DNA of 62,952 nt from Candidatus Omnitrophota bacterium (GTDB lineage: Bacteria; Omnitrophota; Gorgyraeia; Duberdicusellales; 4484-171). The translations under genes and the position numbers were made by a program. The stretch lies in contig JAQUWY010000007.1 of assembly GCA_028692655.1 (NCBI GenBank), positions 1 through 62,952 of the forward strand. The letters are read 5' to 3'. Shown piece after piece: positions 3,487 to 45,822 of this stretch (the stretch's first letter is position 1; each line of letters starts with the position of its first letter). The notes under the pieces were generated by a model. It made no database searches, had not been told where the DNA came from, and saw nothing but the letters and a program-made list of their open reading frames with translations.

Positions 3487-4413
3487 CTAAACCCACCAGT
3501 AGCCTAATTCTTTCAAAATTCTTGGCCGGTGCTGCCAATCACTAAGAACCTTTACCCATATCTCAAGATATACTTTCTTATCGTAAATCTTCTCTATTTC
3601 TGAACGAGCCAAGGTGCCTATTGCTTTAAGGCCACGGCCCTGCTTGCCAATTACTATCTTTTTCTGAGAATTTCTCTGCACATATATTGTTACTTCTATA
3701 TGCACCACCTTTTTCCTGTCTTTTATGGCTGATACCTCTACTGCTACTGAATGGGGCAGTTCCCTGTCCAAGGCCAGAAAAAGCTTTTCCCTGACAATAT
3801 CGGCTATTCTAAACTGTATAGGAAAATCGGTCAGAGTATCTGTATCATAGAATGGGCCTGATTGCGGAAGATTTTCAAGTAAAGCCGCTCTAAGCTCATC
3901 TATATTCTTGCCGGTCTTGGCTGAAACCGGAATAAACTGTGCTGAAGGTTTTTTACCAACTTTTTCATCCGCCTTTTTTTGCCAAGCTTCAATGTAGCTA
4001 TTTAGATATACGGATTTTAGGTCTATTTTATTTAAAACCATGATTACAGGGATATTTTGAGTACTGATAATATCCATTAAGCGGGATTCTTCTTTGCCGA
4101 TGCGCCGAGAAACATCAACAACATACACAATAATATCGCTACCTTCTATCGAGCGTTTGGAAATAACATTGAGATGCTCAGCCAGATGGTCCTTGAAAGA
4201 GTGCATCCCGGGAGTATCCACAAATACTATTTGAGCTCCTTCTAAATTTAATATACCTCGTATCTGATGCCGGGTAGTTTGAGGAATGGGAGAAATGATA
4301 CTTACTTTCTCTCCTACTAAAGCATTCATCAAAGTAGATTTTCCTGTATTCGGCCGGCCTAACACCGCCACAAATCCTGCTTTAAATTTTTTTTCGCTTT
4401 CTTTTGTTATCAT
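3487..4413 (-). CDS. era: GTPase Era
   Basis: GRPNTGKSTL, PQTTR, DTPG, NKID, C-terminal KH domain with GKQG. Confidence 0.97.
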   Translation of the reverse strand: MITKESEKKFKAGFVAVLGRPNTGKSTLMNALVGEKVSIISPIPQTTRHQIRGILNLEGAQIVFVDTPGMHSFKDHLAEHLNVISKRSIEGSDIIVYVVDVSRRIGKEESRLMDIISTQNIPVIMVLNKIDLKSVYLNSYIEAWQKKADEKVGKKPSAQFIPVSAKTGKNIDELRAALLENLPQSGPFYDTDTLTDFPIQFRIADIVREKLFLALDRELPHSVAVEVSAIKDRKKVVHIEVTIYVQRNSQKKIVIGKQGRGLKAIGTLARSEIEKIYDKKVYLEIWVKVLSDWQHRPRILKELGYWWV

Positions 4414-42125: not shown

Positions 42126-42635
42126 TTATTTAGGGCTTAAAATGAGAACAAGGGTTTTGCCTAACATATGAGGCTCGCGGTCAACTCTTCCAACACTTTC
42201 CACATCTTTAATCATCTTATCAATAACCCTTCTGCCTATTTCTTTATGCGCTATCTCGCGCCCCCGGAAAAACATTCTTACACGCACTTTATGATGCTTG
42301 CCCAGAAATTCTTTCGCATGCTTAAGCTTTACCTCATAATCATGTTCATCAATTCTGGGGCTTATCCTCAGCTCTTTAAGCTGCAGCTGTTTCTGGTGTT
42401 TCTTTACTTCTTTTTCTCTTTTTTCCTGTTCATATTTATATTTTGAGAAGTCGATTATACGGCAAACCGGAGGATTTGCCTGAGGAGCAACTTCAACTAA
42501 ATCCAAACCTTGCTCCTCAGCTTTTTTTAAGCCTATGTCGCGAGGGAAAACCCCTAACTGTTCTCCTTCGGGGCCTATCACCCGTAAGGTCTTGGCAAGA
42601 ATCCTTTGATTCACTCTGACATATTTCACGTACAA
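42126..42635 (-). CDS. infC: Translation initiation factor IF-3
   Basis: LDLVEVAPQANPPVCRI, FRGRE. Confidence 0.97.
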   Translation of the reverse strand: MYVKYVRVNQRILAKTLRVIGPEGEQLGVFPRDIGLKKAEEQGLDLVEVAPQANPPVCRIIDFSKYKYEQEKREKEVKKHQKQLQLKELRISPRIDEHDYEVKLKHAKEFLGKHHKVRVRMFFRGREIAHKEIGRRVIDKMIKDVESVGRVDREPHMLGKTLVLILSPK

Positions 42636-42647
42636 TTACCTCCTTAT

Positions 42648-44369
42648 TTAAAGAGACTCCTTTTTGTTGCAACCCTCTTTTAGAATATGAAAAAAATCAG
42701 CCAAGCCCATAGCGCCCATATTTTTCATTCCCTGAGCGCGTAAAGAAACTTTGCCCTCGGCTTGTTCTTTTTTCCCGACAATGACCATGTAAGGTATTTT
42801 TGAAAGTTCTTTATCTCTTATTTTTTTTTGTAACGTTTCATCCCTTAAGTCAGCTTCGGCCCTATAACCTTTGTCTTCTAAAGATTGTTTTATTTTCAGG
42901 GCGTATTCTTTCTGATCCTGGGTTACGCTTAAAACACTTACCTGTACCGGAGCAAGCCATAGAGGAAACTTACCGGCATAATGCTCTATAATGGTAGCAA
43001 TAAATCTTTCCAAACTGCCCAGAATAACCCGATGGATCATTACTACCCTTTCCTGCCCCCCATCGGGAGAACGATAGGTTAAATTAAACCGCTTAGGTAT
43101 ACTATAATCCAGCTGAACAGTAGCACATTGCCATTGCCTATTCAAGGCATCTGTTAATTTAATATCAATTTTTGGCCCGTAAAAGGCCCCGTCTCCTTTG
43201 TTTATTTTGTAAGAAAAATTTTTCTTCTTTAAAACATCTTCTAATATCGACTCAGACATCTTCCAGTCTTCTTCGTCGCCAATAAACTTATCGGGCCGAG
43301 TGCTTAGTTCGGCTACAAACTCGGAAAAGCCGAACTTCTCCATTGCCGTTTTAACAAAGTCTAAAACGCCTTCTATTTCTGAATATAAATCGTCTTTGCG
43401 GCAAAAAATATGCGCGTCGTCCTGGGTAAAACCTCTCACCCGTAGTAAACCGTGCAAAACCCCGCTTTTTTCATACCTGTAAACTGTGCCTAATTCAAAA
43501 AGGCGCAGAGGAAGGTCTCTCCAGCTTCTTAATTGAGATTTGTAAATCAGTATGTGGCCGGGGCAATTCATAGGCTTCAAAATGAACTCCTGGTTATCTT
43601 TCTTGATGGGATACATATAGTCTTCGTAGTACTCCAGGTGCCCGCTTTTTACCCATAGTTTTTTATCCATAATGTGAGGTGTCGAAACCAGTTGATAACC
43701 CCTTTTCAAATGTTCTTTTATCTCCCAGTCTTCTATTATTCTTTTAAGCACTGCTCCTTTGTGGAGATAAAAAGCCAGGCCGGCACCAGCCTGGTTGTGA
43801 TAAATATCAAATAACCCCAGTTCTTTACCCAATTTGCGGTGGTCCCTTTTTTTTGCCTCCTGCAAATTATCCAGGTAAATCCTAAGCTCTTTAGCCGTTT
43901 CAAAAGCTGTGCCGTAAATACGCACCAGCTGGGCATTGCTTTCCATGCCCCGCCAGTATGCCCCCGAAGTTGATAGAATCTTAAAATGCTTAACCTTACC
44001 AGTAGAGCCAACATGCGGGCCGCGGCATAAATCAACGTAACCGGCGTGCTTATAAATAGAAACCTTTTCCTGGGCTAATTCTTTAATTAGTTCTACCTTA
44101 TAAGCTTCACCATGGCTTTTAAAAAAATCCAAGGCCTTGTCTTTAGGCCATTCTTCATGCACAAAAGGATAGTCCGCAGAAACCTCTTCTCTCATCAGTT
44201 CCTCTATCCTAGATAGATCTTCTTCCTTTACTCCTTGAGGAATATAGAAATCATAGTAAAACCCATTCTCGATAGACGGGCCAATGCCTAGTTTAGCTTC
44301 GGGGTATATTTTTTTTACTGCCGAAGCCATGATATGCGAACAAGAATGTCTTAAAGTTTCTAAATCCAT
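42648..44369 (-). CDS. thrS: Threonyl-tRNA synthetase (no N-terminal TGS domain)
   Basis: LRHSCSH, DLCRGPH, KPMNCPGH, GAFYGPKID. Confidence 0.98.
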   Translation of the reverse strand: MDLETLRHSCSHIMASAVKKIYPEAKLGIGPSIENGFYYDFYIPQGVKEEDLSRIEELMREEVSADYPFVHEEWPKDKALDFFKSHGEAYKVELIKELAQEKVSIYKHAGYVDLCRGPHVGSTGKVKHFKILSTSGAYWRGMESNAQLVRIYGTAFETAKELRIYLDNLQEAKKRDHRKLGKELGLFDIYHNQAGAGLAFYLHKGAVLKRIIEDWEIKEHLKRGYQLVSTPHIMDKKLWVKSGHLEYYEDYMYPIKKDNQEFILKPMNCPGHILIYKSQLRSWRDLPLRLFELGTVYRYEKSGVLHGLLRVRGFTQDDAHIFCRKDDLYSEIEGVLDFVKTAMEKFGFSEFVAELSTRPDKFIGDEEDWKMSESILEDVLKKKNFSYKINKGDGAFYGPKIDIKLTDALNRQWQCATVQLDYSIPKRFNLTYRSPDGGQERVVMIHRVILGSLERFIATIIEHYAGKFPLWLAPVQVSVLSVTQDQKEYALKIKQSLEDKGYRAEADLRDETLQKKIRDKELSKIPYMVIVGKKEQAEGKVSLRAQGMKNMGAMGLADFFHILKEGCNKKESL

Positions 44370-44375
44370 TTTAAA

Positions 44376-44472
44376 TTCGTATAGAGTGTATCGTATTTCG
44401 TATATCGCAATGCGATAATGCCTTTCTTAAATTCTCAATACGAAGCATTATATACGCTATACGTTATACGAA
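44376..44472. repeat. 7-mer repeat hairpin (TATACG/CGTATA) between tRNA-Val and thrS
   Basis: ttcgtatagagtgtatcgtatttcgtat facing atacgaagcattatatacgctatacgttatacgaa. Confidence 0.7.
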
Positions 44473-45219
44473 AATGGTGGGCGGTGTAGGATTTGAACCT
44501 ACGACCCTCTGAATGTAAGTCAGATGCGCTTCCGCTGCGCCAACCGCCCGTTTATTTGCCCAAATTCCAAGGCCTTTAATCCAGCCGTTAATTTTTGATC
44601 TAAGGCTTGTATCTGCTATAACAATTCTAAATGTTCCTAAAGGTAACGTATCTCTTTTATTTTTACAAACCTTGCTTACAGCAAATTGTGTTTTATGAAA
44701 CTGTTTAAGTGGTATACCACTGGCTTGTGCCCAAAATTTCCTTGCTTTGTTTTCGTCTAAATGCGGATGCAAATGAAGAGCCCCTCGAAACTTAGAGCTA
44801 GAAACACCGCAGACCTCACGAAAGAAACGCATCATTAATTTAATCATCTGGGGGTCTGAATTGCTAAAATTAACCATATTCACCCCCGCCTTATATCCTT
44901 CAGCCCAATACAATGCGCTTCCAACAATACACAATGTCTTTAAAGAACAATTCGCCGGTATTTGGGCGGCCGCATCTCGCTCAATTGCCTGTCGTTTACA
45001 TAGCCAGAATTGCTTTGGGCTGTTGGGATGATTTGCGGCTTTCGCGCGTGCCCTATCTTGATTATTACGTAGCTTTGCTATTTGAACCTCTGTAAGAGCT
45101 ACGTCTCTAACCCACCTGCTTACAGAACTTTTTGAACACCCCAACTCTTTCGTAATGGACCTAACAGACCATCCTCGCTGACGTAATTGTCTCGCTTGCT
45201 GTTTTTTGTGTTTCTTCAT
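44464..45219 (-). CDS. HTH + LAGLIDADG-like domain protein; ORF reads through tRNA-Val
   Basis: N-terminal HTH (GWSVRSITKELGCSKSSVSRW); GSALYWAEG and FSNSDPQMI motifs. Confidence 0.65.
   Translation of the reverse strand: MKKHKKQQARQLRQRGWSVRSITKELGCSKSSVSRWVRDVALTEVQIAKLRNNQDRARAKAANHPNSPKQFWLCKRQAIERDAAAQIPANCSLKTLCIVGSALYWAEGYKAGVNMVNFSNSDPQMIKLMMRFFREVCGVSSSKFRGALHLHPHLDENKARKFWAQASGIPLKQFHKTQFAVSKVCKNKRDTLPLGTFRIVIADTSLRSKINGWIKGLGIWANKRAVGAAEAHLTYIQRVVGSNPTPPTIFV
44475..44549 (-). tRNA. tRNA-Val(TAC)
   Basis: GGGCGGT/ACCGCCC acceptor, TCTGA-CTTACAT-TCAGA, GTAGG-TTCAAAT-CCTAC, CCA. Confidence 0.97.
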
Positions 45220-45250
45220 TATCGAACCTCTGTATTAGTATCAAAATAAA

Positions 45251-45279
45251 TTATAATCCAGAGGTTCCTCACTGTCAAT
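45251..45279 (-). promoter_or_regulatory. Perfect-consensus sigma70 promoter with overlapping inverted repeat
   Basis: TTGACA-N17-TATAAT; GAACCTCTG..CAGAGGTTC spans -10 and +1. Confidence 0.85.
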
Positions 45280-45301
45280 AAGCCCTTGGCGAATACGCTC
45301 A

Positions 45302-45329
45302 ATGATACCAAATTTTTTTGAAAAATCAA
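45302..45329 (-). promoter_or_regulatory. Second upstream promoter (possible ancestral tRNA-Val promoter)
   Basis: TTGATT-N16-TATCAT with TG extension. Confidence 0.45.
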
Positions 45330-45381: not shown

Positions 45382-45822
45382 TTATCCCTTGGGCAAAGCG
45401 GTCATACAAAAAACCATAACAAACAAAGCTACAGTTTCAATTACGCCCAGAACCATGATGTAGTTTCCAAAGCCTTTACCTGTCTCAGCTAAGGCATCAG
45501 AAGCTTTTGCGGCGGCTTTACCCTGAAAAAAAGCCGAAAGCCCCATGGCAAGCCCGCCAAGACAGCCTATAATCATCTGGTAGATATATGCGTCTGAAGG
45601 AAGCTTTGCCGCTTGTATAGCGTTACGTAAAATCATCCCGTAAATGGTTTGAGACAGCGGAGCTCCCACAAAAGCTATCAAAATAAAAGGAGCCACTTTA
45701 TTCTGGATAAAGGCCTTCTTCCAGGCGCCTATCGCCGCCATACCCGCGACCCCTGTTCCCATAGCTGAGCCTATTGCCGAAAGAGTTAAAGAAAAATTCA
45801 TATCTCCTAGACCTTCTACCAT
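45382..45822 (-). CDS. V/A-type ATP synthase subunit K (proteolipid)
   Basis: Four TM helices, PLSQTIYG, IETVALF; AGGAGG RBS. Confidence 0.93.
   Translation of the reverse strand: MVEGLGDMNFSLTLSAIGSAMGTGVAGMAAIGAWKKAFIQNKVAPFILIAFVGAPLSQTIYGMILRNAIQAAKLPSDAYIYQMIIGCLGGLAMGLSAFFQGKAAAKASDALAETGKGFGNYIMVLGVIETVALFVMVFCMTALPKG

Follow-up and report, generated by a model that had tools for sequence, protein, structure and literature searches.

The stretch of DNA considered here, 62,952 nucleotides (nt) from a Candidatus Omnitrophota bacterium (contig JAQUWY010000007.1) and referred to below as the 63-kb window or simply the window, carries on its minus strand an open reading frame (ORF) that runs in frame into and through a tRNA gene. 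The ORF (44464-45219) starts with ATG and encodes 251 amino acids (aa), codons 1-223 specifying the protein proper and codons 224-251 a translated tRNA with three additional codons. The tRNA is a tRNA-Val(UAC) with an encoded CCA (44475-44549, minus strand; ARAGORN, tac; a full tRNA according to Rfam, at 71.1 bits). Its first nucleotide (+1) is the second base of codon 224, and it spans codons 224-248, after which come the three codons and TAA. An earlier note on this DNA, made from the sequence alone, had named a 251-aa ORF with promoters upstream, the whole tRNA-Val as its last 25 or so codons and thrS-infC following, and every one of these elements is present. The selfish-looking unit upstream of the tRNA, 750 bases in size, which we call the cassette, comprises a consensus promoter, a hairpin that would hide the ribosome-binding site, and a gene for a helix-turn-helix (HTH) and putative nuclease protein that is joined in frame to +1 of tRNA-Val(UAC).

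The overlap of ORF and tRNA is not a chance one, to judge from the sequences of the relatives described below, most of which end in 'RAVGAIG*' or 'GALSSAG*', that is, in the translated 5' end of a tRNA. In the window and three relatives (L080, L081 and L023) the D-loop of the tRNA-Val is short (AGCGGAAGC) and has no TAG, the codon at which the ORF of most relatives stops. Loss of the D-loop TAG in the window means that unprocessed transcripts would be read through the entire tRNA, adding a disordered tail of 28 residues. Such read-through of the whole tRNA is common to the window, L080 and L081, and to several homologs of 255-276 aa, which would fit a functional role in which the tRNA-encoded tail, or the coding overlap itself, has been selected as part of the protein. 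We hold this to be highly improbable, as the sequence of the tail changes with the type of the adjacent tRNA, most homologs end at the D-loop TAG after 7 residues, and L023, which shares the thrS-infC context and the tRNA type of the window, has a stop codon of its own just upstream of the tRNA. Furthermore, AlphaFold models residues 224-251 poorly, with a predicted local distance difference test (pLDDT) score of only ~50-64. The tail is probably a by-product that mirrors the adjacent tRNA, without likely function.

The cassette promoter is a 12/12 match to the consensus (TTGACA-17-TATAAT; 45250-45278, minus strand). A consensus scan also gave a weaker, TG-extended 9/12 site further upstream (TTGATT-16-TATCAT; 45302-45329, minus strand), which may serve as an additional promoter. 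Across the region promoter-like sites are no commoner than in shuffled sequences (5 found, 4.7 expected), and weight is given to the 12/12 site because the same element, a near-consensus -35/-10 pair at about -58, recurs in most Omnitrophota loci examined. The earlier note had placed the gene between a pre-existing promoter and the tRNA; this was not borne out, the perfect promoter being part of the cassette itself.

The promoter is interwoven with an inverted repeat, GAACCTCTG...CAGAGGTTC (45224-45267, minus strand), whose 14-nt arms are 93% complementary. The -35 box lies just 5' of this hairpin and the -10 box in its left arm, and the right arm in the window holds the Shine-Dalgarno motif GAGG (45227-45230), 7 nt before the ATG. 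Most of the Omnitrophota loci examined have the same layout, with a left arm (CGAACCNCUG) after the -35 box and a right arm (CAGAGGUUCG) that contains GAGG and ends 5-7 nt before the ATG. RNAalifold predicted no structure on a MAFFT alignment, in which gaps in the loop shift the register, and the hairpin was assessed instead by per-sequence folding and by a count of pairs on the named structure. As sense RNA the window hairpin (arms 45267-45259 and 45232-45224) folds at -16.7 kcal/mol (z -4.7), and per-sequence folding of the segment from -50 to -1 gives a mean z of -4.9 over the loci relative to shuffles. The mean minimum free energy is -16.3 kcal/mol for the sense RNA against -13.0 for the antisense (Wilcoxon p = 1.5e-4), because the mismatches in the arms are G-U wobbles on the sense strand. 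In 29 loci, 84.4% of the cells in the ten proximal pairs are paired, as against 25-49% when the partner column is slid; 8 of the 10 pairs show changes on both sides, and the covariation score lies above all 500 shuffles. By these comparisons the promoter is embedded in a covarying sense-strand RNA hairpin, a newly found feature.

This arrangement may silence transcripts which enter the cassette from outside. Transcripts from the cassette promoter would begin inside the hairpin, without the left arm, and would be translated. Read-through transcripts, coming from the weaker upstream promoter or from the operon of the V-type ATPase (V-ATPase), would carry both arms, fold, hide the ribosome-binding site and remain untranslated. 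The logic would be as in IS10 and IS50, whose protection from outside transcription was reportedly described by Davis, Simons and Kleckner in 1985 and by Krebs and Reznikoff in 1986. In those elements, too, the 5' arm of an inverted repeat is said to lie upstream of the element's own start, such that only read-through transcripts hide the ribosome-binding site. They are, however, insertion sequences encoding transposases, whereas here the hairpin would belong to a homing-type cassette, encloses the -10 box and is deduced from covariation only.

Two short resemblances were observed around the hairpin. An exact 11-nt copy of the right arm (TACAGAGGTTC, minus strand; 45224-45234) recurs within the ORF at 45084-45094, 140 nt downstream, and might offer the left arm a second pairing partner or be due to chance (~0.1 expected). 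The 19 nt just upstream of the -35 box (45283-45301; TGAGCGTATTCGCCAAGGG, minus strand) are 74% identical to the last codons of V-ATPase K (TGACCGCTTTGCCCAAGGG, 45386-45404), and may be a donor remnant carried in with the cassette or, again, a coincidence.

The protein family and its tRNA neighbours

A word-indexed search with the window protein recovered 294 relatives at 53-66% identity and one at 95%, most of them 230 aa long; all those with a source name are from Candidatus Omnitrophota. An exhaustive profile search yielded 5,560 clusters (50% identity) at E<=1e-3 and 3,001 at E<=1e-10, a clustering in which all Omnitrophota members form a single representative. The family is unannotated and occurs in Omnitrophota, Patescibacteria and large viral contigs. 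Gene callers report its products, 220-276 aa in length, as hypothetical or 'helix-turn-helix' proteins; their C-termini, which vary, are translated tRNA. A literature search found no paper describing the family, and tblastn against 50,697 GenBank phage records gave no relative.

The genome collection holds 75 loci, about 30 of them from Omnitrophota and the remainder from Patescibacteria, each from a different assembly. For the count of adjacency, ORFs were recomputed to the first in-frame stop and a tRNA within 150 nt was scored. Such a tRNA is found at 70 of the 77 genomic loci, most of the exceptions being contig ends or broken copies, and 40 loci have their stop codon within the tRNA itself. 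The same is true of 29 of the 34 relatives on IMG/VR viral contigs, many of which sit in arrays of up to 23 tRNAs within 6.6 kb. Adjacency to tRNA genes among homologs, which the earlier note had proposed to look for, comes near to 100%. Two family members (L215 and L227) lie on one 446-kb 'viral' contig (IMGVR_UViG_3300036715_004471), the only contig with two copies. Several of the family-bearing 'viral' contigs measure 260-527 kb, and these may represent jumbo phages or Patescibacteria genomes binned in error.

The tRNA partner differs from clade to clade. In Omnitrophota the tRNA-Val(UAC) begins 670 (sometimes 658) nt after the ATG, the D-loop TAG serves as stop codon with an overlap of 23 nt, and tRNA-Asp usually comes next. 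Clades from Patescibacteria adjoin tRNA-Gln(UUG), Met, Arg(CCU), Glu/Ser or Val(GAC), or lie upstream of tRNA-Val(UAC), and the sister group of the Omnitrophota clade is a Patescibacteria clade in which tRNA-Val(UAC) flanks the gene on its opposite side. On a maximum-likelihood tree of the protein the label of the tRNA partner changes 13 times (the minimum being 12), with a mean of 38.4 changes in shuffles, none of 200 of which is as low. Each protein clade keeps to one tRNA.

The encoded protein

The N-terminal HTH (residues 7-39; 45103-45201, minus strand) is recognized by Pfam as HTH_23 (E 2.9e-7) and is of the type seen in the DNA-binding domains of IS630/Tc1 transposases. It matches the N-termini of IS630, IS21, IS3 and IS1 transposases, as well as the PAI subdomain of Sleeping Beauty among PDB entries (E 4.4e-4). 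Pfam, NCBIfam and PHROGs recognize nothing beyond this HTH, and no Pfam family matched the C-terminal 130 residues in the window protein, in 103 relatives or in 64 isolated C-terminal domains. The C-terminal domain (residues 93-223; 44551-44943, minus strand) is putatively a single nuclease domain of a diverged LAGLIDADG-like type, in which a large insert separates the last two strands. The earlier note had pointed to the motifs GSALYWAEG and FSNSDP, and these are indeed present; GSALYWAEGYK and FSNSDP constitute the most conserved part of the family. Among 103 diverse members G108 never varies, whereas E107 and N120 reach a conservation of at least 90%; in the Omnitrophota members K110 is invariant. 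Within ALYWAEGYK (residues 102-110; 44890-44916, minus strand), E107-G108-x-K110 aligns with the 'AEGDK' of the second LAGLIDADG motif of I-DmoI. A profile from the 103 diverse members (A3) gives a marginal match to this second motif over 63 residues (E 6e-4 to 2e-3), in which 'LYWgEGsK...v.f.NsD' is paired with 'GLYVAEGDKTLKRLRIWNKN' of I-DmoI.

AlphaFold models the whole protein with a pLDDT of 84.5 and the C-terminal domain with a pLDDT of 86.4 and a predicted template modelling (TM) score, pTM, of 0.80. The predicted order of elements in the latter is helix, short hairpin, helix, strand, an insert of ~45 residues, strand and helix; this alpha-beta-beta-alpha-beta-(insert)-beta-alpha topology is in agreement with a LAGLIDADG domain, provided that a large insert is permitted. 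A fold search of BFVD returned as its best match 'Homing endonuclease [Bodo saltans virus]' (E 0.058), with further weak matches to several LAGLIDADG, DOD or intein proteins (E 0.5-2). What the domain would share with I-CreI-type enzymes and I-DmoI is a helix ending in Glu-Gly, then x-Lys, a short hairpin and a helix, the profile being aligned to I-DmoI residues 85-146. It differs from them in its shortened first hairpin, its ~45-residue insert, the N-terminal HTH and the lack of a match to Pfam LAGLIDADG models or to their fold in the PDB, and in that its gene lies outside any intron or intein. I-CreI-type enzymes with a single LAGLIDADG motif are homodimers, and the presence of one motif per protein implies a homodimer in the present case as well.

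A series of searches weighs against this assignment. A narrower, less diverse profile of the C-terminal domain (A4) had no match in PDB sequences. None of the Pfam LAGLIDADG models (_1, _2, _3 and WhiA) matched the window protein at E<=10, and none is among the 25 families listed for the 103 members (E<=0.01) or among those listed for the 64 isolated C-terminal domains (E<=1). A Foldseek search of the PDB with models of the whole protein and of the C-terminal domain gave the OmpA-like YfiB (E 4e-4, TM-score 0.43), with no LAGLIDADG enzyme in the top 50. A single-sequence search of the PDB with the window protein was likewise without a match. The LAGLIDADG claim of the earlier note accordingly stands in part: the marginal I-DmoI match and the compatible predicted topology speak for it and the silence of the Pfam models against it, and the fold searches are divided between the PDB, in which it finds no support, and BFVD, in which it finds some, at a weak E-value. 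We consider a LAGLIDADG-like nuclease to be an unproven identification of this domain, and our confidence in it is below that in the mobile cassette. A peptidoglycan-binding (OmpA-like) domain was considered and rejected, because the topology is a different one and this HTH protein is cytoplasmic. Pfam detected neither a GIY-YIG nor an HNH domain, and the sole PHROG match to an 'HNH endonuclease' (E 0.037) covers residues 8-46, that is, the HTH.

Filled and empty sites

The insertion site was sampled independently of the cassette by scanning metagenome contigs for a word of the tRNA-Asp T-arm, which gave 80 loci, about 58 of them with a tRNA-Val-tRNA-Asp pair. Omnitrophota synteny was defined by V-ATPase K and I genes upstream, which also lie upstream of the cassette in the window, and/or by tRNA_bind, CxxCxxCC and LPG_synthase genes downstream. 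The 26 Omnitrophota loci recognizable by synteny in this sample are all without the cassette, and two loci (L136 and L145) have it. Vertical presence in all relatives, which the earlier note had named as evidence to the contrary, is not the pattern found: 2 of ~28 Omnitrophota tRNA-Val/tRNA-Asp loci are filled.

Empty sites have a tRNA promoter of their own, 8-12 nt upstream of tRNA +1. The empty L112 and the filled L003 have an identical tRNA-Val, and in L003 a cassette of 743 nt takes the place of 48 nt of resident promoter and leader; on the left, homology ends 6 nt past the stop codon of V-ATPase K, and on the right it returns exactly at tRNA +1. In this pair the cassette promoter stands where the empty allele has its resident tRNA promoter, in keeping with a takeover of tRNA-Val transcription there; the earlier note had suggested such a takeover for essential genes. 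A second empty allele, L091, is 98.8% identical to L003 over the V-ATPase K gene and has a different type of tRNA-Val, a sign that the cassette moves together with its adjoining tRNA. Empty alleles in relatives, for which that note had also proposed to search, are hence represented by both L091 and L112.

As a separate observation on L091 (Ga0074199_1000221), positions 430-790 contain hairpin-like repeats (CCCTCGG...CCGAGGG) and a second, interrupted tRNA-Val 3' end that lies downstream of an intact tRNA-Val.

Pairwise distances among 11 genomes that share the V-ATPase context correlate well between V-ATPase I and V-ATPase K (r = 0.83) and poorly between V-ATPase I and the cassette protein (r = 0.13, Mantel p = 0.20). 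The pair L007 and L010 is an outlier, with cassette proteins 86% and V-ATPase I proteins 49% identical. On these distances the phylogeny of the cassette is decoupled from that of the neighbouring host genes. Two loci retain just upstream of the cassette a remnant of the 5' half of a former tRNA-Val, of 36 nt in L007 (z = 10.8) and 19 nt in L009 (z = 3.5). A candidate for such a remnant in the window was discarded as not significant (z = -1.1), only 'GGCTTA' abutting the -35 box, and most other loci are similar in this respect.

These truncated tRNA halves, along with the resemblance of the HTH to transposase N-termini and to the PAI subdomain and the want of a confirmed known fold for the C-terminal domain, could also be accommodated by a minimal site-specific transposon or integrase-like element. 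Its C-terminal domain would then be a novel catalyst of strand transfer or nicking, with the 5' ends or anticodon loops of tRNAs as the points at which the cassette is inserted. We regard such an element as unlikely. The ends of the cassette in the window bear no terminal inverted repeats, neither the window nor the L003/L112 junctions have a target-site duplication, no second copy is present in the 63-kb window, and the matches in the genome collection come one from each assembly. Moreover, L003 and L091 differ by the whole promoter-tRNA segment including the type of tRNA, which fits gene conversion with co-conversion of flanks, and the profile match is to the motif of a homing endonuclease (I-DmoI).

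The ratio of nonsynonymous to synonymous substitution rates (dN/dS) is 0.07-0.11, including the comparison of the window with its 95% identical relative L080 (dS 0.20), a sign of strong purifying selection. Decayed copies also exist: L028 has a TAG (4160-4162, codon 54) where its relatives have Gln, and L029 has an unalignable N-terminus, probably owing to a frameshift, and an in-frame TGA; in both the tRNA-Val downstream is intact.

The strength of selection (dN/dS ~0.1) leads to the consideration of a domesticated HTH regulator, kept by the host as an autoregulator of the tRNA-Val unit (perhaps with thrS-infC) that binds the promoter palindrome and uses its nuclease-like domain only for dimerization or DNA binding, as in WhiA. 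Consistent with this are the overlap of the palindrome with the cassette promoter, the persistence of intact ORFs across genomes with V-ATPase I only 35-46% identical, and fold searches that did not confirm a nuclease. We nevertheless assign it a low probability. The patchy distribution (~26 empty to 2 filled, with a near-identical strain that is without the cassette) speaks against a needed host function, and empty sites have a separate tRNA promoter. The hairpin mismatches, being sense-strand G-U wobbles that leave the antisense strand to fold worse, are more in line with an RNA structure than with a symmetric operator. Conservation of the putative catalytic Glu is at least 90%, in contrast to domesticated LAGLIDADG domains such as those of WhiA and maturases, which are degenerate. 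Finally, different clades adjoin different tRNAs and some copies lie within phage tRNA arrays. WhiA, a vertically inherited protein of Gram-positive bacteria, has LAGLIDADG-derived domains and a C-terminal HTH. The present protein is reminiscent of it in combining a putative LAGLIDADG-type domain with an HTH in a bacterial DNA-binding protein; WhiA, however, has two such domains, both degenerate, and its HTH at the other end, and Pfam LAGLIDADG_WhiA has no match here.

The homing-type reading and the wider locus

The proposal of a free-standing, intron-less, selfish-looking element tied to tRNA genes, already made in the earlier note, is supported by the adjacency, the empty alleles and the patchy presence described above, and on balance we favour, with some reserve, the view that ~45278-44550 is a compact free-standing homing-type mobile cassette. 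Its protein, probably as a homodimer, would cut cassette-free alleles at or near the junction of the promoter/leader and the tRNA 5' end, or within the tRNA, and repair would copy the cassette into the cut allele, often with the adjoining tRNA. The cassette promoter would then drive both the ORF and tRNA-Val. Processing of tRNA precursors by RNase P and trans-translation are established processes. As the stop codon lies inside or after the tRNA in the overlapping arrangements, cleavage by RNase P at tRNA +1 must remove it; this would yield a non-stop mRNA, a substrate for transfer-messenger RNA (tmRNA), and would keep the nuclease at a low level. Maturation of the tRNA would itself, by virtue of the coding overlap, act as a brake on expression.

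To the negative results on the protein are to be added several points that count against the homing-type reading at the level of the locus. There is no proven empty allele in the sub-lineage of the window, in which the window, L080, L081 and L023 alike carry the cassette, and the G+C content of the cassette equals that of its flanks (0.41), giving no signal of foreign DNA. The sequencing runs that hold the window sequence are of landfill DNA, with no RNA runs, and we infer the promoter, RNase P and non-stop-decay steps. The identity of tRNA-Val between the filled L003 and the empty L112 implies that cassette-bearing genomes would be cut as well if the target were contained entirely in the tRNA, and thereby argues for a target that includes the promoter/leader side. 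The remnants in L007 and L009 end near tRNA position 35, which suggests a break inside the tRNA. In Logan contigs from the landfill samples of the window, V-ATPase K (~85% nt identity) is joined to the first 28 nt of the tRNA within <=215 nt; this is suggestive, as an empty site and an old fragment would look alike.

Functionally, the cassette comes closest to SegB of phage T4; in sequence, its best lead is the second motif of I-DmoI. The gene for SegB, a homing endonuclease, is free-standing rather than intron-borne and lies in a cluster of tRNA genes, and it favours the inheritance of itself and of the neighbouring tRNA region (PMC2330249). As with segB and the free-standing endonuclease genes in the tRNA region of phage T5, we are dealing with an intron-less gene among tRNAs, relatives of which also reside in phage-like tRNA arrays. 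SegB is, however, a GIY-YIG enzyme, a domain which, like HNH, was not found in the window protein; further, the present family resides mainly in cellular genomes (Omnitrophota and Patescibacteria), with its own promoter and an ORF fused in frame to the 5' end of a tRNA. In bacteria of the candidate phyla radiation, LAGLIDADG genes have been described in insertions of rRNA genes (PMC11270868), in an account that does not mention tRNA. The likeness there lies in the patescibacterial hosts and in a selfish nuclease gene, putative in our case, that is associated with a stable-RNA gene. Those insertions are intervening sequences that are removed from the RNA, whereas here the RNA gene is uninterrupted and the cassette abuts its 5' end.

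This raises the possibility of a third way into an essential stable-RNA gene besides introns and inteins, by which an element settles flush against the 5' end and takes over the promoter. We tentatively propose, as an idea with somewhat less than even chances, that the family represents an unrecognized class of intron-less homing elements that colonize tRNA genes over several phyla. Its members would abut or rebuild the tRNA 5' end, take their stop codon from the D-loop, supply the tRNA promoter, and restrain their own nuclease through the hairpin, which would silence read-through transcripts, and through RNase P, which would turn their mRNA into a non-stop message. Each clade would possess a meganuclease for one tRNA (Val-UAC, Gln-UUG, Met, Arg-CCU and others), with tRNA arrays of jumbo phages as possible vehicles between Patescibacteria and Omnitrophota. 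If the nuclease is active, the family, with its thousands of diverged proteins that each go with one particular tRNA gene, would provide a large untapped set of DNA endonucleases with long recognition sites.

Downstream of tRNA-Val in the window lie thrS (42648-44369) and then infC (42126-42635), both on the minus strand. The same thrS-infC pair follows tRNA-Val in L023, L080 and L081, in the place where other Omnitrophota loci usually have tRNA-Asp (gtc), and tRNA-Asp is not in the 63-kb window; this substitution points to a rearrangement breakpoint directly 3' of tRNA-Val. No intrinsic terminator was found in the 105-nt spacer between tRNA-Val and thrS (44370-44474, minus strand), which contains four CGTAT words followed by three ATACG words and long imperfect inverted repeats. 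The repeats are 20-26 nt long and 77-80% complementary. The spacer, which is largely kept in the 95% identical relative L080 and includes a TATAAT, could form a leader or attenuator structure of thrS, or contain a promoter.

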